The notes under the pieces were generated by a model. That model saw only the letters and a list, made by a program, of their open reading frames with translations. It was not told the DNA's origin and searched no databases. Source: a virus (lineage: Duplodnaviria; Heunggongvirae; Uroviricota; Caudoviricetes). From it: DNA of 9,651 bases. Position 1 is the first letter of the stretch. Every line of letters starts with the position of its first letter. Positions 1-9,651 of the stretch are shown here, one piece after another. The stretch lies in the IMG/VR virus record IMGVR_UViG_2585427793_000010; one strand, given 5' to 3'. A program made the translations under genes and the position numbers.

Positions 1-1158
1 ATGCTCACCGTTAAGCAGATTGAAGCAGCAAAGCCGAAAGAAAAACCATACCGCCTTCTCGATGGTAATGGCCTGTACCTTTATGTCCCTGTGTCAGGGA
101 AAAAGGTATGGCAGCTTCGCTACAAGATTGACGGTAAGGAGAAAATCCTGACCGTCGGAAAATATCCGCTTATGACTTTGCAGGAGGCAAGGGATAAAGC
201 ATGGACTGCGAGGAAAGACATCTCAGTTGGCATCGATCCTGTAAAGGCGAAAAAGGCTTCGTCTAACAACAATTCCTTTAGTGCGATTTACAAGGAATGG
301 TACGAGCACAAGAAGCAAGTATGGTCAGTAGGGTATGCAACTGAACTTGCCAAAATGTTTGACGACGACATTTTACCTATCATTGGCGGCCTTGAAATTC
401 AGGATATTGAGCCGATGCAACTGCTGGAAGTAATCCGCAGGTTTGAAGATCGCGGTGCAATGGAACGAGCCAACAAAGCACGCAGAAGATGCGGCGAGGT
501 TTTCCGTTACGCTATTGTCACCGGAAGGGCTAAATATAACCCGGCACCTGACCTTGCTGACGCCATGAAGGGATACCGCAAGAAGAACTTCCCGTTTCTT
601 CCTGCAGACCAGATCCCGGCATTCAACAAAGCACTGGCAACATTTTCAGGAAGTATCGTATCGCTCATTGCGACCAAAGTTTTACGCTACACAGCCCTAA
701 GAACGAAAGAGCTTCGTTCCATGCTATGGAAGAACGTCGATTTTGAAAATAGGATTATCACCATCGACGCCAGTGTGATGAAAGGACGCAAAATTCATGT
801 GGTTCCTATGTCAGACCAGGTAGTTGAACTTCTCACTACGCTAAGCTCCATCACCAAACCAGTCTCAGAGTTTGTTTTTGCCGGGCGCAACGATAAGAAG
901 AAGCCAATCTGCGAGAACGCGGTACTGCTTGTGATCAAACAAATCGGCTATGAGGGTCTGGAAAGCGGTCACGGATTCAGGCATGAATTCAGCACGATTA
1001 TGAACGAGCACGAATGGCCTGCTGACGCTATTGAAGTGCAACTGGCACATGCAAACGGCGGATCTGTGCGTGGGATTTACAACCATGCTCAGTATCTCGA
1101 TAAACGCAGAGAAATGATGCAATGGTGGGCGGACTGGCTTGATGAGAAGGGGGAGTGA
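1..1158 (+). CDS. intS: Prophage integrase, P4-type tyrosine recombinase
   Basis: 385-aa ORF. N-terminal arm-binding-like region (MLTVKQIEAAKPKEKPYRLLDGNGLYLYV). C-terminal catalytic signature candidates: R in TALRTKELRS, HxxR in GHGFRHEF, and Y in GIYNHAQYLDKRRE. Confidence 0.95.
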   Translation: MLTVKQIEAAKPKEKPYRLLDGNGLYLYVPVSGKKVWQLRYKIDGKEKILTVGKYPLMTLQEARDKAWTARKDISVGIDPVKAKKASSNNNSFSAIYKEWYEHKKQVWSVGYATELAKMFDDDILPIIGGLEIQDIEPMQLLEVIRRFEDRGAMERANKARRRCGEVFRYAIVTGRAKYNPAPDLADAMKGYRKKNFPFLPADQIPAFNKALATFSGSIVSLIATKVLRYTALRTKELRSMLWKNVDFENRIITIDASVMKGRKIHVVPMSDQVVELLTTLSSITKPVSEFVFAGRNDKKKPICENAVLLVIKQIGYEGLESGHGFRHEFSTIMNEHEWPADAIEVQLAHANGGSVRGIYNHAQYLDKRREMMQWWADWLDEKGE

Positions 1159-1310
1159 GCGACCTTAACAACTATCGAATAGCACAAAGTCTTGCAATCC
1201 AGTGCAAAGCTTTGTGTGTATAAGTTTTGTCTCATCAACCACAGCAAGTATCGATCGATTAAGACTTGGATGATAGACTTCATTCCTTTGATTATTAGCT
1301 GATAGAAGAA
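1159..1310 (+). promoter_or_regulatory. Upstream regulatory region of the gtr operon; promoter not resolved
   Basis: 152-bp intergenic region. Contains inverted repeat TTGCA-N7-TGCAA (1192-1208), a TATAAG -10-like hexamer (1219-1224) and the 10-bp palindrome ATCGATCGAT (1250-1259) carrying the only GATC. No well-spaced -35/-10 pair found by eye. Confidence 0.3.
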
Positions 1311-1673
1311 ATGTTAAAGCTATTTGCAAAGTACACCTCTATTGGTGTGCTGAACACCCTTATACACTGGGTGGTTTTTGGTGTTTGTATCTATGTCGCG
1401 CATACAAACCAAGCTCTTGCAAACTTCGCAGGTTTCGTTGTGGCTGTGAGCTTTAGCTTCTTCGCGAATGCAAAATTCACATTCAAGGCATCGACTACAA
1501 CGATGCGCTACATGCTATATGTTGGGTTCATGGGGACACTGAGTGCTACTGTTGGATGGGCTGCTGATAGATGCGCACTTCCCCCGATGATAACTCTTGT
1601 CACCTTCTCCGCCATCAGCCTGGTGTGCGGTTTCGTCTATTCAAAGTTCATTGTCTTTAGGGATGCGAAATGA
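1311..1673 (+). CDS. gtrA: GtrA-family small membrane protein, bactoprenol-linked glucose flippase
   Basis: 120-aa hydrophobic ORF, first of a gtrA-gtrB-gtr(type) triad; its stop overlaps the next start (ATGA at 1670-1673). Synonym yfdG in K-12. Confidence 0.9.
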
Positions 1674-2590
1674 AGATATCTCTTGTAGTTCCTGTCTTCA
1701 ATGAAGAAGAAGCGATACCAATTTTTTATAAAACGGTACGTGAATTCGAAGAATTGAAGTCATATGAAGTGGAAATCGTTTTCATAAATGACGGCAGCAA
1801 AGACGCTACGGAGTCAATCATTAATGCTCTGGCTGTTTCAGATCCTCTAGTTGTTCCGCTGTCATTTACACGCAACTTTGGTAAAGAACCAGCATTGTTT
1901 GCAGGGTTAGACCATGCAACCGGGGATGCGATAATCCCAATTGATGTTGACCTGCAAGACCCGATTGAGGTTATTCCTCATCTTATTGAAAAATGGCAAG
2001 CAGGTGCTGATATGGTTCTTGCTAAAAGATCTGACCGCTCAACTGATGGACGCCTGAAGCGAAAAACGGCTGAGTGGTTCTATAAGCTCCACAATAAAAT
2101 AAGCAATCCTAAAATTGAAGAGAATGTTGGTGATTTCAGGCTGATGAGCCGTGATGTTGTCGAAAATATTAAACTTATGCCAGAACGAAACCTTTTCATG
2201 AAAGGTATTCTGAGCTGGGTAGGAGGAAAGACAGATATTGTTGAATACGTGCGAGCGGAAAGAATTGCTGGAGATACAAAATTTAATGGATGGAAACTTT
2301 GGAATTTAGCACTTGAGGGTATTACAAGCTTTTCCACATTCCCTCTTCGCATCTGGACATACATAGGGTTAGTGGTAGCCAGTGTAGCATTTATTTATGG
2401 GGCGTGGATGATTTTAGATACTATCATATTTGGAAATGCTGTTAGGGGATATCCTTCACTACTTGTTTCAATACTGTTTTTAGGTGGAATTCAGATGATT
2501 GGAATAGGAGTATTAGGTGAATATATTGGACGCACATACATTGAAACCAAAAAACGCCCGAAATACATCATCAAGAGAGTCAAAAAATGA
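1670..2590 (+). CDS. gtrB: Bactoprenol glucosyltransferase, GT2 family
   Basis: 306-aa ORF. N-terminal GT2 signature ([25 protein letters not shown] as DxD) and C-terminal hydrophobic segments. ATGA overlap with gtrA upstream and with the next gene at 2587-2590. Synonym yfdH. Confidence 0.93.
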
Positions 2591-3918
2591 ATAAAGCAAT
2601 AAAAGTATCATTGTATATATCTTTTGTTTTGATTATTTGCGCCTTATCTAAAAACATAATGATGTTAAATACATCTGATTTCGGAAGAGCCATTAAGCCA
2701 TTAATTGAAGACATACCAGCATTTACATATGACTTACCTTTATTGTATAAATTGAAAGGTCATATTGATTCAATTGATAGCTATGAGTATATAAGTTCAT
2801 ATAGTTATATTTTGTATACATACGTCCTGTTTATTAGCATTTTTACTGAATATCTTGATGCTAGGGTGTTATCGTTATTTCTAAAAGTAATATATATTTA
2901 TTCATTATATGCGATATTTACTTCATATATAAAAACAGAAAGGTATGTAACTTTATTTACATTCTTTATTTTAGCTTTTCTTATGTGTTCTTCATCAACA
3001 CTGTCAATGTTTGCATCATTCTATCAAGAGCAAATAGTTATAATTTTCCTTCCATTTTTGGTGTATTCATTAACATGCAAAAACAATAAATCTATGCTTT
3101 TGCTATTTTTTTCGTTGCTAATAATATCTACTGCTAAAAATCAATTTATATTAACCCCACTAATAGTGTATTCATATTATATTTTTTTTGATAGACACAA
3201 ACTAATTATTAAATCTGTAATATGCGTGGTGTGCTTGCTTGCGTCAATATTTGCAATATCTTATTCAAAAGGTGTTGTTGAATTAAATAAGTACCATGCA
3301 ACATACTTCGGTAGTTATCTTTATATGAAAAACAACGGGTATAAAATGCCATCGTATGTTGATGATAAGTGTGTTGGGTTAGATGCCTGGGGTAATAAAT
3401 TCGACATATCATTTGGCGCAACCCCAACAGAAGTTGGAACGGAATGTTTCGAATCTCATAAAGATGAAACGTTTTCGAATGCACTCTTTTTATTGGTTAG
3501 CAAACCAAGCACCATCTTCAAACTTCCATTTGATGATGGTGTGATGTCTCAGTATAAAGAAAATTATTTCCATGTATATAAAAAACTACACGTAATATAT
3601 GGAGAATCAAACATACTAACGACTATTACTAACATAAAAGACAATATATTTAAAAACATTAGATTTATATCATTGTTATTATTTTTTATTGCTTCTATTT
3701 TTATTAGAAATAATAAAATAAAGGCATCTTTATTTGTAGTATCTCTTTTTGGAATATCTCAATTTTATGTGTCATTTTTCGGGGAAGGATATAGAGATTT
3801 AAGCAAGCATTTATTTGGAATGTATTTTTCGTTCGACCTTTGCTTATACATAACAGTCGTTTTTTTAATTTATAAAATAATTCAAAGAAATCAAGACAAT
3901 AGCGATGTAAAGCACTAA
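2587..3918 (+). CDS. gtrS: Serotype-specific O-antigen glucosyltransferase, polytopic membrane protein
   Basis: 443-aa highly hydrophobic ORF in the third position of the gtr triad. Markedly AT-rich (about 28-30% GC by eye) compared with gtrA and gtrB, typical of horizontally acquired type-specific gtr genes. Synonym yfdI. Confidence 0.85.
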
Positions 3919-3926
3919 GTTTAAAT

Positions 3927-3948
3927 TGCGCGCCAATCATGGCGCGCA
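3927..3948. terminator. GC-rich hairpin between the convergent gtrS and tail-fibre-fragment ORFs; possible bidirectional terminator
   Basis: Perfect 8-bp stem TGCGCGCC / GGCGCGCA with 6-nt loop AATCAT, 9 nt after the gtrS stop and 5 nt beyond the stop of the minus-strand ORF ending at 3953. No strong U-tract on either side, hence low confidence. Confidence 0.3.
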
Positions 3949-3952
3949 CAAG

Positions 3953-4282
3953 CTATAATACCAACCTAATTTCTCCTCCTCTTAGAGTGACTATATCTCC
4001 TGATAGAATTGCGGTATTGACTATCAAATGCCCTGATTCGTTGTTTATTGTAATATCTCCTCTATCTGCAGACGATAACTTAAATGCATCATTGCCCACA
4101 ACAAACCCCCTCCAGAACCAAGTGCTGATATTATCATCAACAGTGATAGATACATATACTAACTGATTATCGTTATAAGTGATTCCTGTCTTATACTTAA
4201 CATAAGGACTTCCACTTTGATTCTCGATAGACACATAACATCCAGGGGTTATGTTTGTATGCGTCCCGCGACTATCGCCCCA
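3953..4282 (-). pseudogene. Tail-fibre-like C-terminal fragment, AT-rich and N-terminally truncated
   Basis: The minus-strand frame is open for about 109 codons (stop on the plus strand at 4283-4285) in about 35% GC DNA, where stop-free runs are improbable. Product is beta-rich and N/G/S/T-rich (…ITINNESGHLIVNTAILSGDIVTLRGGEIRLVL), as in fibre tip domains. GTG start at 4234 has no good RBS. Family assignment is inference. Confidence 0.3.
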
Positions 4283-4561
4283 TTAACGCCATACGATAAA
4301 TGGGATGGTGAGAAATGGGTGACGGATACCGAGGCACAGCATAGCGTCGCAGTAGATGCAGCAGAAGCACAGCGCCAGTCGCTGATTGATACTGCAATGG
4401 CTTCCATTAGTCTGATTCAACTGAAATTACAGGCTGGGCGGAAGCTGATGCAGGCAGAGACCTCCCGACTTAACACTGTGCTGGATTACATTGACGCGGT
4501 GACGGCAACAGATACCAGCACCGCGCCGGATGTCATCTGGCCTGAACTGCCGGAGGAGTAG
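4217..4561 (+). pseudogene. tfaS: Tail fibre assembly protein fragment, N-terminally truncated
   Basis: C-terminal two-thirds of a lambda-Tfa-like protein (…YDKWDGEKWVTDTEA…TDTSTAPDVIWPELPEE). ORF begins at TTG 4217 with an internal ATG at 4259; Tfa-like sequence starts only at about 4262, coinciding with the GC-content breakpoint. Confidence 0.7.
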
Positions 4562-4973
4562 GCCATTCAATATCTGGCGCACTGGAAGTATCGACCAGCT
4601 CCAGTGCGTCCAGATAATCCAGCCACAAATTATATTGCGCCAGTTCCTCACCTTTCAGACGACCAATAGCCGCTTTACCAGCCCATTGTTTACTGTTCAT
4701 ATAATCGTTGGCCTGATTAATCAATTGCTGCTTTTTCAGTTCGGCTGCAGCAATCTGTTCCTCATGTGTTGGTGGTGGAATTTCAGACCATGCAGGAAAA
4801 CCATTTTCTCCAGCGATACGGATTTTTCCTTTCGGCGGTAATCCGGAAAACTCAATATACACTTGCTCATCAACTTCAACAGCATCATCTGGCCATGAGC
4901 CAGCTTGCGTGTAATCCTCTTTCATCTCCAAGGGATAGAAAGAGTTTGTAGTCGCGGAATATATGTAATTCAT
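4533..4973 (-). CDS. yfdK: Tail fibre assembly protein (Tfa family), full length
   Basis: 146-aa ORF with Tfa-type C-terminus (…VDTSSAPDIEWPTPPAVQAR). GGAG RBS 6 nt upstream of the ATG at 4973. Its 3' end overlaps the tfaS 3' end tail-to-tail by 29 bp. Confidence 0.85.
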   Translation of the reverse strand: MNYIYSATTNSFYPLEMKEDYTQAGSWPDDAVEVDEQVYIEFSGLPPKGKIRIAGENGFPAWSEIPPPTHEEQIAAAELKKQQLINQANDYMNSKQWAGKAAIGRLKGEELAQYNLWLDYLDALELVDTSSAPDIEWPTPPAVQAR

Positions 4974-4999
4974 TTTTCACTCCATAAAGTTAAAAGAAA

Positions 5000-5641
5000 T
5001 TAATACCCTAATGCGAAAAATGAAGCACCGATACCGGGTACGCCTGCTCTGGAAATAAATTTCACCGGGTCCTGGTTATAACCGGCACAAGCTATATAGC
5101 CAACATTTGCACTGCCGGGAGTGTAATCCTGAGTCGCAAATACCCGCAGACATCTATTCGGAAATGCAATCGGAAAATAGGTTACTGTGTCCTGAGACGT
5201 CAGCGGAACATCAATTGGCCCCCATTGAATAATTAAACCGGATGGCAATTTTTGATATCCAGGAACTGAAGCAGAAAGCATAAAACTACCCATATCAGGT
5301 ATCTGATTCGCCCCTGTCCCTACATTTCTTTTAGCCGCTTCTCCCAAACCAAGGTTTTCGAGAGCCTTTTGCACCGTGCCGTCCAATTTGATATCGCCAA
5401 ACGGATTCTTGCGGCTTAACAGCAGCGCACGAAGCGCGGTAAGCAGCTGGTCATGCCGCCCCTTCTCCAGGCTGGCACCGGAGGCCTCCACAACGCTGCA
5501 AAGCTCCTCCTGCAACATGTCAAAGTAGTCATCATCCAGATCGGTGGCAGGCGTGCCGGTCTGGGGGTTACCACGGGTAAAACCGTTCTTACCCGCGCCG
5601 AACTTATCCTTCTGCGCGGTTTTCGTGTCTATACGATGCAT
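5000..5641 (-). CDS. yfdL: Tail fibre protein, short or rearranged
   Basis: 213-aa ORF immediately upstream of yfdK on the same strand (fibre then tfa order). The ATG at 5641 is preceded by GGAG with a 6-nt spacer, supporting the long form over the internal Met-42 start (172 aa). Fibre-like C-terminal region (…[19 protein letters not shown]…). Confidence 0.65.
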
Positions 5642-5644
5642 GGA

Positions 5645-5845
5645 TTACTCCGGATATTTAAAAATTACGTAGGTATGCGACGGGCAGAGTTTGTTAAGCA
5701 CACACTCGACAACGGTGTCACCCCAGATACGCAGTGCGGAATCACAGGGATCGCCACATGTCATCCAGGTGGTGTTGGCGGCGGCTGGCATGTTGACCTG
5801 CCAGTAATACCGCCATTCCGGCGCATTCACAGCGTCAGTAGGCAC
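5645..5845 (-). CDS. Hypothetical small protein upstream of and coupled to yfdL; possibly a gene fragment
   Basis: 66-codon ORF with GTG start. Its TAA stop lies 3 nt before the yfdL ATG, and the yfdL RBS (GGAG) sits in its last codons. No recognisable motifs. An in-frame stop lies immediately upstream, so it cannot be longer. Confidence 0.35.
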
Positions 5846-5847
5846 TC

Positions 5848-6144
5848 ATGTTAAAGCAGGTGTATGAAATGAAAGTCCAGATTTTAAACAATAACTGTGA
5901 AGTCGTTTGGTCATACGACATAGCCGCCCCTGTAGATCAGAGCGGCGATAGCTGGACCAATGGGAAACATCAGATTATGGCTGGAGTTGTGTTCTCTTTA
6001 CGCCGTGCTTTGGAACAGGCTGAAGTATTTCCATCAGACCCTGAATGGAAATGGCCTTTTTCTATTTGTCCAAATTCGGAGAGCACATTTCAGAAAATTG
6101 GTCAGAAAGTCGCACTCGAAGAGCATCAGCCAACTGTTTCCTGA
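5848..6144 (+). CDS. Hypothetical ORF; questionable
   Basis: 98 codons from ATG 5848 (alternative ATG at 5869 with AGGTG 9 nt upstream). No long minus-strand frame exists across 5846-6061. Its 3' end overlaps the convergent 81-codon ORF by 83 bp, so at most one of the pair is probably fully genuine. Confidence 0.2.
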   Translation: MLKQVYEMKVQILNNNCEVVWSYDIAAPVDQSGDSWTNGKHQIMAGVVFSLRRALEQAEVFPSDPEWKWPFSICPNSESTFQKIGQKVALEEHQPTVS

Positions 6145-6307
6145 TTTTTTCAGGTAACTCGTCGGCATCGCAGAAACAACAACGCTCGATCATGTTGAAA
6201 GCCGATTCGTAGAACTGTTTCTGCTGAGTGTCGCTGAGACAGGAAAAGAGCGACGTTACGATGATTTTATTAATTGCATTATCAAGTTCTTTTTCATCAA
6301 AAGTCAT
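6062..6307 (-). CDS. Hypothetical 81-aa protein with a Cys cluster, first gene of the leftward unit
   Basis: ATG at 6307 preceded by AAGGAA RBS (6-nt spacer) and an in-frame TAA four codons further upstream, so the ORF is complete. Product MTFDEKELDNAINK…ERCCFCDADELPEK…; no HTH recognisable. Transcribed divergently from the yfdP operon. Confidence 0.5.
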   Translation of the reverse strand: MTFDEKELDNAINKIIVTSLFSCLSDTQQKQFYESAFNMIERCCFCDADELPEKIRKQLADALRVRLSDQFSEMCSPNLDK

Positions 6308-6560
6308 TTGATTTTCCTTTTATGTATACGGGCTTAAAAGGATACCACCGAGCCTGAAGTGGTGAAAAGACAGGCACATAACAGCTAAGTATTTTCAACC
6401 AAAGAGAATCCTTAGCGTTGTGGTGAATGCGGCTCAGCGCACGCGGGTTAAGGTTGAGGCTGACAGTCGACCTTCTGTGGATACCCACCCGTCTGGTGTG
6501 CAACCTTCGCCAGGCACCGGGAGGCACCCGGCACCACAACTTTATGCTGTGTGTAGTCCT

Positions 6561-6607
6561 GGCGGTACCAGTTTGTGCCCTTGCTTCCGGCTGGTACCGT
6601 CCTTTTT
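6561..6607 (+). terminator. Terminator-like hairpin with T5 tract inside the GC-rich intergenic region
   Basis: Arms CGGTACCAG (6563-6571) and CTGGTACCG (6591-6599), extendable to 11 bp with one G-U pair, followed by TCC then TTTTT (6603-6607). The 19-nt loop lowers confidence. Confidence 0.25.
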
Positions 6608-6744
6608 ACAAAACAGAGAAGAGCATCACCGGACGACGGGCTCATAACCCAATCCATCCGGGCGGCTGCCACCGCAGGTGTTCTTCTCTGTTTTGTGGAG
6701 AAACTAATCGGCCTTGCAGCGTCGATATGATGAGGAGCAGCAAA

Positions 6745-7107
6745 ATGGCTAGCGAACGCAGTACTGATGTGCAGGCATTTATCGGGGAGCTGGACGGCGG
6801 CGTATTTGAAACCAAAATCGGCGCAGTTCTCAGTGAAGTCGCTTCCGGTGTGATGAACACGAAAACCAAAGGTAAGGTCTCACTCAACCTGGAAATCGAA
6901 CCATTTGATGAGAACCGTCTGAAAATCAAACACAAACTCTCATATGTTCGCCCGACTAACCGTGGGAAAATTTCCGAAGAAGACACCACCGAAACGCCGA
7001 TGTATGTCAATCGCGGTGGTCGCCTGACTATTCTGCAGGAAGACCAGGGACAATTACTGACTCTTGCCGGTGAGCCTGACGGAAAACTCCGCGCAGCAGG
7101 TCATTAA
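6745..7107 (+). CDS. yfdP: Conserved prophage protein of unknown function, first gene of the rightward operon
   Basis: 120-aa product from ATG 6745, preceded by GAGGAG (6732-6737) with a 7-nt spacer. The 106 in-frame codons upstream (from 6427) are Arg/Cys-rich low-complexity read-through of GC-rich DNA and are judged non-coding. Confidence 0.8.
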   Translation: MASERSTDVQAFIGELDGGVFETKIGAVLSEVASGVMNTKTKGKVSLNLEIEPFDENRLKIKHKLSYVRPTNRGKISEEDTTETPMYVNRGGRLTILQEDQGQLLTLAGEPDGKLRAAGH

Positions 7108-7172
7108 TATCATTCTTAATTAACTAATTATTTATCTCATCACTGAATATCTTAATATAGTGAGGACTTATT

Positions 7173-7997
7173 ATGTCTCAGAACTTAGACGCAACCGCAA
7201 TTAATCAAATCCATGCCCTTATTTCTGCTCAGGGTGTTAATGAAATTATCAGTAAGATTGGTGCCGATGCTGTGGCATTGCCTGAGAATTTCCGCATTCA
7301 TGATCTGGAAAAATTTAATTTAAATCGCTTCCGTTTCCGTGGTGCGCTTTCCACTGCCAGCATCGATGACTTTACCCGTTATTCTAAAGATCTTGCAGAT
7401 GAAGGCACCCGCTGCTTTATCGATGCTGATAATATGCGTGCCGTCAGTGTGCTTAACCTGGGTACTATTGATGAACCAGGTCACGCAGATAACACCGCCA
7501 CTCTCAAACTGAAAAAGACAGCACCGTTCTCTGCCCTGTTGTCTGTTAACGGCGAGCGTAACTCCCAGAAATCACTGGCAGAATGGATTGAAGACTGGGC
7601 CGACTACCTTGTGGGCTTTGATGCTAATGGTGACGCCATTCAGGCAACAAAAGCGGCTGCGGCAATCCGTAAAATCACGATTGAAGCAAACCAGACCGCT
7701 GATTTTGAAGATAATGACTTCAGCGGCAAACGCTCCCTGATGGAATCTGTCGAAGCGAAGACCAAAGACATTATGCCAGTGGCATTTGAATTTAAATGCG
7801 TTCCGTTTGAAGGTCTGAAAGAACGTCCGTTTAAATTACGCCTCAGCATTATCACTGGCGATCGTCCTGTACTGGTTCTGCGCATTATTCAGCTGGAAGC
7901 GGTGCAGGAAGATATGGCTAACGAATTTCGTGATCTGCTTGTTGAGAAATTCAAAGACAGCAAAGTAGAAACCTTTATTGGTACTTTCACCGCCTGA
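7173..7997 (+). CDS. yfdQ: Conserved prophage protein of unknown function; DUF2303-like by recollection
   Basis: 274-aa ORF with GAGGA RBS 6 nt upstream of the ATG. Acidic, soluble-looking protein with no catalytic motif recognisable by eye. Confidence 0.88.
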
Positions 7998-8009
7998 TTT
8001 CATTACTGC

Positions 8010-8031
8010 AAATGCCCCTGCGGGGGCATTT
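8010..8031 (+). terminator. Intrinsic terminator-like hairpin between yfdQ and yfdR
   Basis: AAATGCCCC-tgcg-GGGGCATTT: 9-bp stem with GC-rich core, 4-nt loop and A-tract/U-tract arms, followed by AU, 13 nt after the yfdQ stop. Short U-run, so probably partial or bidirectional. Confidence 0.45.
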
Positions 8032-8124
8032 ATGGAAACGTAATTAACTCAATAATCACCGGATGGTGAGGGCTTCCTTTTACCCAAACTCAGCGCGGTG
8101 CAGCGCATATACGTGGAGAACAAA

Positions 8125-8661
8125 ATGTCATTTATTAAAACTTTTTCCGGGAAGCATTTTTATTATGACAAGATAAATAAAGACGACATCGTGATTAACG
8201 ATATCGCGGTTTCCCTTTCAAATATCTGCCGCTTTGCCGGTCATCTTTCTCACTTCTACAGTGTCGCCCAACATGCGGTGCTTTGCAGCCAGCTGGTGCC
8301 GCAGGAATTTGCTTTTGAAGCATTAATGCATGATGCAACAGAAGCGTATTGCCAGGACATCCCCGCACCACTGAAACGCCTTCTTCCTGACTATAAACGG
8401 ATGGAAGAAAAAATAGATGCAGTAATCCGTGAGAAATACGGGTTACCTCCTGTTATGAGCACGCCAGTGAAATATGCCGATCTCATTATGCTGGCAACCG
8501 AACGCCGTGATCTCGGGCTTGATGATGGCTCTTTCTGGCCTGTACTGGAAGGCATCCCGGCAACAGAGATGTTCAACGTGATTCCACTGGCACCGGGTCA
8601 TGCCTACGGGATGTTTATGGAACGTTTTAACGATTTATCGGAGTTACGCAAATGCGCATGA
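8125..8661 (+). CDS. yfdR: HD-domain phosphohydrolase, YfbR-like 5'-deoxynucleotidase family
   Basis: 178-aa product from ATG 8125 (GGAG RBS, 6-nt spacer); the track ORF starts at an upstream GTG 8098. HD signature visible: H in SVAQHAV, HD in ALMHDATEAYCQDIP, downstream Asp in ADLIMLATERRDLG. Confidence 0.88.
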   Translation: MSFIKTFSGKHFYYDKINKDDIVINDIAVSLSNICRFAGHLSHFYSVAQHAVLCSQLVPQEFAFEALMHDATEAYCQDIPAPLKRLLPDYKRMEEKIDAVIREKYGLPPVMSTPVKYADLIMLATERRDLGLDDGSFWPVLEGIPATEMFNVIPLAPGHAYGMFMERFNDLSELRKCA

Positions 8662-9014
8662 ATGTTTTCGAAATGGAAGGGTTTCTTCGCGGGAAATGTG
8701 TACCGCGAGATCTGAAAGTGAACGAAACAAATGCTGAGTACCTGGTACGTAAATTCGACGCGCTTGAAGCTAAATGTGCGGCACTGGAAAACAAAATAAT
8801 ACCAGTGTCAGCTGAACTGCCACCAGCAAATGAAAGTGTTCTGTTATTTGATGCTAACGGAGAAGGCTGGCTGATTGGCTGGCGTTCTCTCTGGTACACC
8901 TGGGGACAAAAAGAAACCGGAGAATGGCAGTGGACATTTCAGGTTGGGGACCTTGAAAACGTCAATATCACTCACTGGGCAGTAATGCCAAAAGCACCGG
9001 AGGCTGGAGCATAA
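8652..9014 (+). CDS. yfdS: Conserved prophage protein of unknown function, Trp-rich C-terminus
   Basis: 120-aa ORF. Start overlaps the yfdR stop (ATG 8652, alternative ATG 8658 forming ATGA), with GGAG at 8640-8643, indicating translational coupling. Confidence 0.85.
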   Translation: MRMNVFEMEGFLRGKCVPRDLKVNETNAEYLVRKFDALEAKCAALENKIIPVSAELPPANESVLLFDANGEGWLIGWRSLWYTWGQKETGEWQWTFQVGDLENVNITHWAVMPKAPEAGA

Positions 9015-9319
9015 TGACCACATTTACCAATAAAGAACTGATTAAAGAAATCAAAGAACGAATCAGCAGCCTAGAGGTTCGAGACGATATTGAGCGCCGT
9101 GCTTATGAAATCGCACTCGTATCTCTGGAAGTAGAGCCAGATGAACGCGAAGCCTATGAATTATTCATGGAAAAGCGTTTCGGTGACTTAGTAGATCGTC
9201 GGAGAGCAAAAAACGGCGATAACGAATACATGGCATGGGATATGACTCTCGGTTGGATCATCTGGCAGCAACGAGCTGGTATCCATTTTTCAACAATGTC
9301 ACAACAAGAGGTGAAATAA
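9014..9319 (+). CDS. yfdT: Conserved prophage protein of unknown function
   Basis: 101-aa ORF. TAATG stop-start overlap with yfdS and GGAG RBS with 5-nt spacer. Confidence 0.85.
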   Translation: MTTFTNKELIKEIKERISSLEVRDDIERRAYEIALVSLEVEPDEREAYELFMEKRFGDLVDRRRAKNGDNEYMAWDMTLGWIIWQQRAGIHFSTMSQQEVK

Positions 9320-9375
9320 TAGAGCCATACAGCCTCACACTCGATGAGGCCTGTCAGTTTCTTAAAATATCCTGA
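9235..9375 (+). pseudogene. ypdJ: Excisionase/AlpA-like HTH fragment, truncated
   Basis: 46-codon ORF overlapping the yfdT 3' end in another frame. Only the segment after the yfdT stop (9322-9372, EPYSLTLDEACQFLKIS) looks protein-like and resembles the start of an Xis/AlpA helix-turn-helix; it stops before the recognition helix. Confidence 0.45.
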
Positions 9376-9415
9376 TCTACCATCGCCGTCATAGAGCGTA
9401 TTTTTATTACCTGAT

Positions 9416-9431
9416 TTGCAGGTTCGATTCC
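9416..9431 (+). other. tRNA T-arm-like 16-mer (TTGCAGGTTCGATTCC), isolated fragment
   Basis: Contains the canonical T-loop motif GGTTCGATTCC but no complementary 3' T-stem, acceptor or anticodon arm nearby. Lies between the excisionase fragment and torI. From memory it matches the T-arm of tRNA-Arg (argW); unverified. Confidence 0.4.
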
Positions 9432-9450
9432 CTATTCGGAGATAGCACTC

Positions 9451-9651
9451 ATGCAACACGAACTACAGCCTGATTCACTGGTTGATTTGAAATTCATCAT
9501 GGCTGATACTGGCTTTGGTAAAACCTTCATCTATGACCGGATTAAGTCAGGCGACCTGCCAAAAGCCAAAGTTATCCACGGGCGAGCAAGATGGTTATAT
9601 CGTGACCATTGTGAATTCAAAAATAAGCTCTTAAGCCGCGCCAATGGGTAA
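9451..9651 (+). CDS. torI: Excisionase (recombination directionality factor) and TorR response-regulator inhibitor
   Basis: 66-aa ORF recognised as TorI (MQHELQPDSLVDLKFIMADTGFGKTFIYDRIKSGDLPKAKVIHGRARW…). GGAGA RBS 8 nt upstream. Winged-helix Xis-like pattern. Confidence 0.93.
   Translation: MQHELQPDSLVDLKFIMADTGFGKTFIYDRIKSGDLPKAKVIHGRARWLYRDHCEFKNKLLSRANG

Follow-up and report, generated by a model that had tools for sequence, protein, structure and literature searches.

STnc100 and PasD are prophage-encoded, Hfq-associated small RNAs (sRNAs) of Salmonella and pathogenic Escherichia coli, PasD being grouped here through its reported homology to STnc100 only. In strain EDL933, 11 STnc100 copies are expressed, one of which was verified by Northern analysis (PMC5331693); the Hfq-bound sRNA EcOnc27 overlaps STnc100, in a copy located downstream of stx2B (PMC12711010), and the enteropathogenic E. 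coli sRNA PasD was reported to be homologous to STnc100 (bioRxiv 10.64898/2026.05.13.724894). In canonical STnc100 copies a TGTTAAA-type -10 element sits directly at the closing helix of the RNA (P1); they carry their own terminator and often occur in tandem. Tandem arrays of two to three copies within 1 kb were observed, in which the variable region is unlike in each copy. The DNA examined here is a stretch of 9,651 nucleotides (nt) from a tailed-phage record of IMG/VR (IMGVR_UViG_2585427793_000010), which as a whole is referred to as the window. Within it, the interval 6308-6744, directly upstream of the gene yfdP, is probably the non-coding leader of the early-left operon, the one transcribed from the promoter PL, and holds a divergent, Hfq-dependent sRNA of the STnc100/PasD type.

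The original prediction, made from the sequence alone, had proposed that this interval may encode a leader, an attenuator or a small RNA and had named covariance-model searches as a check. Run over the whole window, such a search returned a sole Rfam match, STnc100 (RF02076), which covers model positions 1-206 and + strand positions 6395-6610 with a score of 39.5 bits (E 6.4e-6). The proposal was borne out in that the interval holds a covariation-supported structured RNA with an intrinsic terminator, whose homolog in E. coli K-12, a 90%-identical copy in the e14 prophage annotated as the gene ymfH, is bound by Hfq. Sub-threshold scores were obtained with the STnc100 model for the relatives in SfV (39.5 bits), ST64B (35.1), e14 (29.2), phiES15 (40.6) and a Klebsiella phage (35.0).

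The architecture of the family was derived from regular-expression extraction combined with Rfam. Two pattern scans of IMG/VR yielded 240 loci, and the architecture was read from 122 unique cores, which present in order P1, a GAAU junction, a bulged-A helix P2, a variable P3, P4, P5 and the 3' strand of P1, followed after 20-40 variable nt by a terminator. Among these cores P1 occurs in 43 different versions of 3-24 base pairs (bp), always complementary, and P4 is formed by dozens of unrelated but complementary sequences, while P5 is invariant. The window copy conforms to this plan, with P1 bracketing GUGAAU ... CCGGGAGGCACCCGG-CAC, the P2 and P4 hairpins inside, and a 3' intrinsic terminator (stem 6561-6601 plus U5) at whose U-tract 3' ends of the e14 copy are found. 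IpeX of DLP12 was considered as a family member and discarded, as it contains no core motif. Ideas raised from the sequence alone, namely a CRISPR-repeat mimic, a tRNA-like element or CsrA sites, were abandoned since the variant P2 does not keep the resemblance.

The RNA predicted for the + strand consists, from 5' to 3', of an upstream hairpin, a hairpin P0, the five-helix core, a single-stranded seed, the terminator and two further hairpins, HP2 and HP3. The upstream hairpin, ACCACCGAGCCUGAAGUGGU (6344-6363), extends with its tail GAAAAGACAGGCAC to 6377. It belongs to a block (6342-6384) that is 95-100% conserved and kept even in Klebsiella phages, six homology matches covering that block alone; other subtypes have a different yet complementary upstream hairpin, UUGGCC...GGCUAA. 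P0 (6384-6416) pairs GCUAAG (6384-6389) with CUUAGC (6411-6416) across a 21-nt loop. It is present in the minimum free energy (MFE) fold too and covaries across subtypes (UAAGAG/CUCUUA in ST64B, AAGAGCAUUC/GAAUGCUCUU in locus L094 and AUGAAGCACAUUCC/GGAGUGUGCUUCAU in locus L091). The stretch that holds the canonical -10 element in STnc100 is base-paired as P0 in the window. TAAGTA (6386-6391), at first taken for a -10 element, was discarded as such, since GCUAAG forms the 5' side of this covarying helix.

The five-helix core, defined by RF02076 and by covariation, spans 6417-6540. P1 pairs GUUGUGGUG (6417-6425) with CACCACAAC (6532-6540) and is followed by the GAAU junction, the bulged-A hairpin P2 (6429-6444), the variable insert P3, P4 (GUCUGGUG, 6491-6498, with CGCCAGGC, 6508-6515) and the invariant P5 (CCGGG-AGGCA-CCCGG, 6517-6531). 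Two features already pointed out in the original prediction find their place in this fold. The hairpin formed by CCGGG (6517-6521) and CCCGG (6527-6531), around which the triple GGCACC repeat (6513, 6523 and 6530) lies, is the invariant CACCGGGAGGCACCCGGCACCA of the STnc100 family, and the stem followed by T5 is the terminator of the family. This intrinsic terminator (6561-6607) has an 11-bp stem, GGCGGTACCAG (6561-6571) with CTGGTACCGTC (6591-6601), a 19-nt loop and U5 at 6603-6607. A simple terminator scanner missed the stem on account of the length of its loop, and the Rfam alignment uses it as the terminator; compensatory changes occur at four stem pairs, e.g., GUCGGCGUC/GACGCCGAC in ST64B. 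The single-stranded seed, UUUAUGCUGUGUGUAGUCCU (6541-6560), lies between the core and the terminator.

Downstream, HP2 (6603-6703) has a 25-bp stem (6603-6627/6679-6703) with two small hairpins on top, and HP3 (6709-6724) is a small hairpin located 8 nt upstream of the yfdP Shine-Dalgarno sequence. The base of HP2 uses the U-tract of the terminator, and HP2 can form in read-through transcripts only. In HP2, 98.7% of the cells are paired, double changes are found at three pairs and invariant U.G pairs exclude a DNA palindrome; as these pairs are invariant, the structure is that of an RNA of the + strand. HP3 is degenerate in the window (CGGCC/CGUCG, two mismatches) and covaries in relatives (CGACC/GGUCG, GGCGG/CCGCC and GCCCC/GGGGC), with double changes at four of its five pairs.

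All these helices covary when phages of E. coli, Salmonella, Klebsiella, Cronobacter and Citrobacter are compared. For the core, 96.5% of the pair cells in 13 early-left variants are standard pairs, compared with 32-48% when the partners are slid; P1 is 100% paired in the same variants and shows double changes at four of nine pairs. The terminator, HP2 and HP3 taken together are 95.6% paired, vs 43-51% with slid partners, and contain 14 pairs with double changes, vs 4.1 +/- 1.7 in shuffles. The + strand folds better than the - strand; fold z-scores on the + strand were -3.1 and -5.0, and for the HP2 region the value was -5.04 on the + strand vs -2.43 on the - strand. The core varies in sequence much less than the seed or the loop of the terminator, with 0-1 substitutions per 20 nt in 6420-6439 and 6520-6539 vs 17-22 in the terminator loop.

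The substitution pattern indicates that the interval is non-coding. The 151 distinct substitutions recorded among 71 distinct homologs are distributed 46/48/57 over the codon positions, whichever frame is considered, whereas the same test gave 4/4/32 for yfdP as a control (32 of 40 substitutions at third positions), and at least 10 different, independent 1-nt insertions or deletions occur among the homologs. Neither a conserved frame nor an excess of third-position changes, as a ymfH-like protein gene would display, was found. It could be argued that the interval is a decayed protein gene, either an immunity or repressor relic, as the original prediction suggested, or a real small protein gene like ymfH. 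This idea draws on the 103-amino acid (aa) open reading frame (ORF) ymfH annotated over this sequence in e14, the "frameshifted hypothetical protein" called here by PGAP in the ECONIH4 prophage, a weak and partial PHROG match of YmfH, and the stop-poor, Arg-rich frames that had been noticed at the outset (only two to four stops in four of the six frames). Apart from the substitutions and frequent 1-nt indels, which also dispose of a pseudogenised remnant, it is contradicted by the division of the e14 ORF between two frames in the window, by the lack of any Pfam match, by a conservation that tracks helices rather than codons, and by intact phages that retain their own repressor and carry the same region at up to 99.7% identity. 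A protein gene, functional or decayed, is therefore extremely unlikely. The interval is by the same comparison not a deletion scar either, because a 99.7%-identical version of it is present in SfV, about 600 nt from the PL of that phage on the downstream side. The GC content, initially put at about 58%, was computed as 52.4% for 6308-6744 and 55.7% for 6395-6744. It peaks at 68% over 60 nt, against a window mean of 43%, and about 5% of 437-nt segments reach the same GC as the interval.

Published data on the e14 copy give experimental access to the element. In K-12, the Term-seq study by Adams et al. (2021; supplementary file 1 of PMC7815308) mapped three sense-strand 3' ends at this copy, so that transcript ends, proposed earlier as a check, do fall inside the interval. 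The end at 1201195, detected in M63 medium, follows ...CUGGUACCGCCCUUUUU and corresponds to window position 6607 in the U-tract of the terminator; that at 1201257, detected in LB at an optical density of 0.4, follows ...CACCACAACUUUA and corresponds to 6544 at the junction of core and seed; and that at 1201423, the strongest and present in all three conditions, follows ...GACAGGCAC and corresponds to 6377 (PMC7815308). This last end lies 14 nt past the upstream hairpin, has no U-tract and was classed as not Rho-dependent (PMC7815308); it may have arisen by processing or mark where a short transcript stops.

The e14 RNA was also captured on Hfq. In the RIL-seq data of McQuail et al. (PMC10954441, supplement), mepS.5UTR:::ymfH was represented by 60 chimeras (odds ratio 332, p 1.6e-119) in one library and by 40 chimeras (odds ratio 269, p 1.2e-74) in a second one, and sdsR:::ymfH by 159-196 chimeras. 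In the mepS chimeras "ymfH" is the second RNA, as known sRNAs are in the same tables, and it ends at 1201194-1201195, i.e., at window position 6607. The chimeric segment of the mepS 5' untranslated region (5'UTR) contains CACAGCAUA, which over 9 nt is perfectly complementary to UAUGCUGUG of the seed (6543-6551), a match for which the chance expectation was estimated at about 0.006, and the seed of the window is identical to that of e14. RNAduplex energies for the seed and mepS were not significant relative to shuffles (p 0.03-0.12), and the exact 9-mer alone was used as evidence. The supplement of an Hfq CLASH study has no ymfH entry. Altogether, the e14 copy is an Hfq-bound sRNA that has been mis-annotated as the protein gene ymfH. 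In addition, ymfH was placed in the SOS/e14 "YmfT" iModulon, and RcaT, the toxin of retron-Sen2, is reportedly triggered when a "ymfH" clone is over-expressed (bioRxiv 10.1101/2020.06.22.160242); as the clone encodes a structured RNA and no credible protein, the trigger may be the RNA rather than a protein.

Based on this evidence, a course of events can be proposed for the element. A transcript started at PL would be cut 14 nt after the upstream hairpin, and most polymerases would halt at the terminator, giving an RNA about 230 nt long (window 6378-6607). This RNA would bind Hfq through the terminator hairpin and the U-tail and would pair through its seed, UAUGCUGUGUGUAGUC, with mRNAs of the host, including that of mepS. 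Further cleavage behind UUUA (window 6544) may yield a fragment of about 63 nt comprising seed and terminator, comparable to what RNase E produces from the sRNA RprA. Polymerases that read through would make the yfdP-to-int mRNA, the 5'UTR of which would fold into HP2 and HP3, and the 25-bp duplex of HP2 looks like a substrate for RNase III. Since PL is deleted here, production of the window copy would depend on transcription that reads in from upstream or on an internal promoter that has escaped recognition. Consensus scans agreed with the initial observation that no sigma-70 promoter is present on the + strand, and promoter searches that covered e14, SfV and two Klebsiella-type loci besides the window detected no + strand promoter next to the element, only the PL of SfV.

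Several points weigh against the proposal of an Hfq-dependent sRNA within an early-left leader. The score of 39.5 bits is lower than the Rfam gathering cut-off of 47; no promoter was found, the canonical TGTTAAA-type extended -10 element at P1 being absent from the variant; and the window is devoid of PL. All experimental data concern the e14 copy (90% identical) and not this allele or strain, the putative cleavage steps are deduced from mapped 3' ends, and the pairing in mepS is situated about 135 nt upstream of the start codon. Finally, Klebsiella-type variants keep the core without a terminator. These copies have a P1 of 20-24 bp, run straight into small ORFs and are found about 100 nt after the repressor terminator, behind operator-like palindromes. 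Since they have the core and lack the terminator, sRNA function alone cannot explain why the core is conserved. Some Klebsiella-type phages were seen to carry, besides one early-left variant, one canonical copy at a distance of 3-9 kb and in the opposite orientation. This arrangement and the tandem arrays of canonical copies were noted in loci L166 (4385-5454), L139 (377-730), L211 (3835-12851), L098, L099 and L105.

The conservation of the core leads to the alternative that it is mainly a cis-acting element of the early-left leader, involved in antitermination as put or nut sites are or serving as a scaffold for processing or stability, with a secondary role as an sRNA. In its antitermination form, the RNA would modify the polymerase or recruit a factor, allowing it to pass the terminator located 20 nt downstream and reach xis and int in lambdoid phages that lack a recognisable N. 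Like lambda nutL and HK022 putL, the element is a structured RNA that closely follows PL and precedes the first terminators, and P5, with a 5-bp stem and a 5-nt loop, is of the size of boxB. It is always placed between PL and the first early-left gene, with no intervening ORF or terminator of its own in the Klebsiella-type copies; in types A and C a strong terminator follows directly, yet the operon runs on to xis and int; and the core (0-1 substitutions per 20 nt) exceeds in conservation the seed and the terminator loop (17-22). On the other hand, canonical members with the same core are stand-alone units with their own promoter and terminator, often in tandem, and accumulate as discrete RNAs of about 200 nt, which means that the core does not prevent termination in them. 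Termination does happen at the terminator of e14 and, unlike the put sites of HK022 (RNAs of about 70 nt with two stems, downstream of both PL and PR, conferring terminator resistance), no second copy is found downstream of PR in SfV, ECONIH4 or e14, and the element has neither a motif in common with the put region nor similarity to its fold. A boxA/boxB interpretation was rejected as well, given that the loop of P5, AGGCA, does not fit the GNRNA pattern of boxB and the boxA-like UGCUCUUU of some variants is base-paired in P0. A primarily cis-acting role is thus considered unlikely.

An attenuator that responds to a ligand or factor in the manner of a riboswitch was also weighed; sensing would fall to the five-helix domain, and the terminator would serve as expression platform for yfdP-int. 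The layout is aptamer-like, as a closed multi-helix domain with invariant junction nucleotides precedes by 20 nt a terminator at the head of an operon, and in the MFE fold the 5' strand of P1 pairs alternatively with the upstream CACAUAAC. Nevertheless, there is no evident competition between terminator and antiterminator via the 3' strand of P1, the 20-24-bp P1 of the Klebsiella-type copies could not switch and no terminator is present there, canonical copies precede no gene, and the e14 RNA behaves in RIL-seq like an Hfq partner that acts in trans. Such a device appears very improbable. A wider interpretation holds that the STnc100 core functions as an independent RNA module, recombined with interchangeable seed/terminator cassettes from a pool from which RprA (for its seed segment) and DicF (for its terminator) also draw, and that the Hfq sRNA ymfH links e14 to the cell wall via mepS. 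The core might then be a leader element that binds a protein or the polymerase, or a scaffold for sRNA maturation, at the head of the early-left operon. This broader scheme is speculative and taken as a whole rather doubtful.

The genomic setting is in line with the assignment of the Hfq-dependent sRNA to an early-left leader. Over positions 1-5579 and 6726-9651 the window shares 99.9-100% identity with the cryptic prophage CPS-53/KplE1 of E. coli K-12, and these parts carry intS, yfdGHI, tail-fibre remnants and yfdP-yfdT, while 5836-6725 matches the early-left region of the Shigella phage SfV (97-99.7%), where K-12 has yfdM/N/O. CPS-53 of K-12 itself is without the element. When 5580-6725 is set against the K-12 locus (L006, 6124-7586), the window looks like a CPS-53 whose yfdM/yfdN/yfdO segment gave way to an SfV-like one. 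The junction near 5836 was found in none of the 5,426 complete E. coli genomes searched, hence the window may originate from Shigella or an unsampled lineage. A match to the region itself is present in 2864 of these 5426 genomes, unannotated or as a hypothetical protein (ymfH in K-12).

The same non-coding region occurs at the same place in the intact phages SfV, SfII, SfIV, ST64B, mEp460 and phiNP and in the intact ECONIH4 prophage, and in SfV, ST64B, mEp460, phiNP, e14, a Klebsiella phage and Cronobacter phiES15 the element has a constant place, after the immunity region and before the first early-left gene. SfV-like phages have yfdP as this first gene, whereas in the phages of Klebsiella and Cronobacter small ORFs and kil follow. 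The PL of SfV (TTGACA-16-CATAAT, 11/12) overlaps TGTACC-type operator repeats directly after the cI terminator and is separated from the element by about 600 nt with one small ORF. The original prediction had regarded the interval as the site of the lambdoid repressor and operators; in intact phages these, together with PL, lie 0.6-1.3 kb further upstream, outside the interval. The SfV homology of the window begins at L003 3497, downstream of the SfV PL (3376-3403). As judged from these alignments, the remnant has lost everything upstream of 5836, PL included, and nothing within the interval.

On its right side the interval is flanked, as initially described, by yfdP on the + strand (Shine-Dalgarno GAGGAG at 6732-6737, coding sequence 6745-7107; PHROG 204, E 7e-49), the first gene after the leader. 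On the left, the divergent 81-codon gene of that description is uncertain. Two ORFs on opposite strands overlap there by 83 nt, one of 98 aa (5848-6144, + strand) and one of 81 aa (6062-6307, - strand), each belonging to a separate PHROG family. PGAP and the authors of the SfV genome call the 98-aa ORF, and the substitutions in the overlapping ORFs are too few to favour either. In e14 the ORFs ymfJ/ymfI are arranged alike with unrelated sequences, and neither the 81-aa nor the 98-aa product resembled YmfI or YmfJ when compared with them.

Some additional features were observed in these prophages. The yfdH/yfdI segment of the window (2600-3900), of the gtr type for O-antigen glucosylation, has only 23-27% GC, far below the rest of the prophage, a value typical of horizontally acquired serotype-conversion cassettes. 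In the ECONIH4 prophage (L001, 11405-12721) a pair consisting of a DarT single-stranded DNA ADP-ribosyltransferase and a NADAR antitoxin adjoins the integrase end. SfV, mEp460 and ST64B contain on the - strand (L003 1231-1432, L004 1323-1524 and L005 1407-1608) a P1/P7-type C4 antisense RNA (80-84 bits) and an isrK-like RNA (64-67 bits), both inside the "immunity region"/antirepressor gene of the early-right operon; these RNAs amount to a second, RNA-based immunity layer.

Recognition of ymfH as an sRNA and leader would remove a spurious protein family and enlarge the K-12 list by an Hfq sRNA whose host target, mepS (coding for a murein endopeptidase), can be put to the test. Such recognition would also extend the STnc100/PasD group to the niche of the PL leader and to phages of Klebsiella, Cronobacter, Citrobacter and Salmonella, and it poses the question of the role of an invariant core that persists in variants without seed or terminator, providing a lead on how lambdoid phages lacking N pass the first early-left terminator.

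The 3' part of the element relates it to two other sRNAs. Immediately 5' of the terminator, UGCUGUGUGUAGUC (6545-6558) is identical to 14 nt of RprA (K-12 rprA, L253 236-249), and the Cronobacter phiES15 variant (L009, 3110-3135) shares with RprA AUUGCUGUGUGUAGUCUUU (19 nt) plus GCCC. The RprA model (RF00034) gave no hit in the window at E<=1, and the phiES15 variant reaches 41 bits against a cut-off of 70. RprA nt 29-47 (GCAUGGAAAUCCCCUG) was also seen to resemble the 5' end of canonical STnc100 (GCAUGGUGAAUCCCCCUG). A shared origin of host and phage sRNAs, or a swap of seed modules, is possible from these identities. The 3' end mapped between the structured part and the seed segment parallels the processing of RprA by RNase E; unlike the present RNA, RprA is a chromosomal, Rcs-controlled Hfq sRNA of the core genome, and the 5' domains of the two are unrelated in fold.

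DicF is an sRNA of the Qin prophage that is processed from the dicB operon transcript. The e14 seed and terminator (L007, 5201-5254, - strand, equivalent to window 6548-6602) align to the whole DicF model (RF00039) with 28.5 bits, for a cut-off of 48, whereas the window gave no hit. The e14 terminator module shares UUGGCGGUAYCAGUUUU...CCGCCC with DicF, and both are sRNAs whose 3' end is set by a terminator, which lie inside an early prophage operon under repressor control and have Hfq and host mRNAs as partners. DicF differs in that it has no STnc100-type core and in its seeds and targets, and processing of the RNA considered here is proposed by inference only. Judging by these alignments, the 3' module is a mosaic, with 14 nt identical to RprA and, in e14, a DicF-like terminator, and prophage sRNAs appear to share terminator cassettes.

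The closest relative is STnc100 itself, from which the window copy departs in several respects. P2 reads GCGGCUCAGCGCACGC here and CCCCCUGUGCGGAGGGG in STnc100; P0 and the upstream hairpin are additional; and instead of a stand-alone gene with its own promoter 5' of P1 in the late (Q/stx/lysis) region, the element is part of an early-left operon leader, without a promoter at P1 and followed by a structured 5'UTR, some variants being without a terminator. Hfq association and mRNA pairing, known from the published RIL-seq for the e14 ortholog only, and carriage by prophages are traits common to both, as are a covariance-model match over the full length, a closing helix around GUGAAU...GGCAC, the bulged-A P2, P4, the invariant CCGGGAGGCACCCGG hairpin and a variable single-stranded stretch that leads into an intrinsic terminator.

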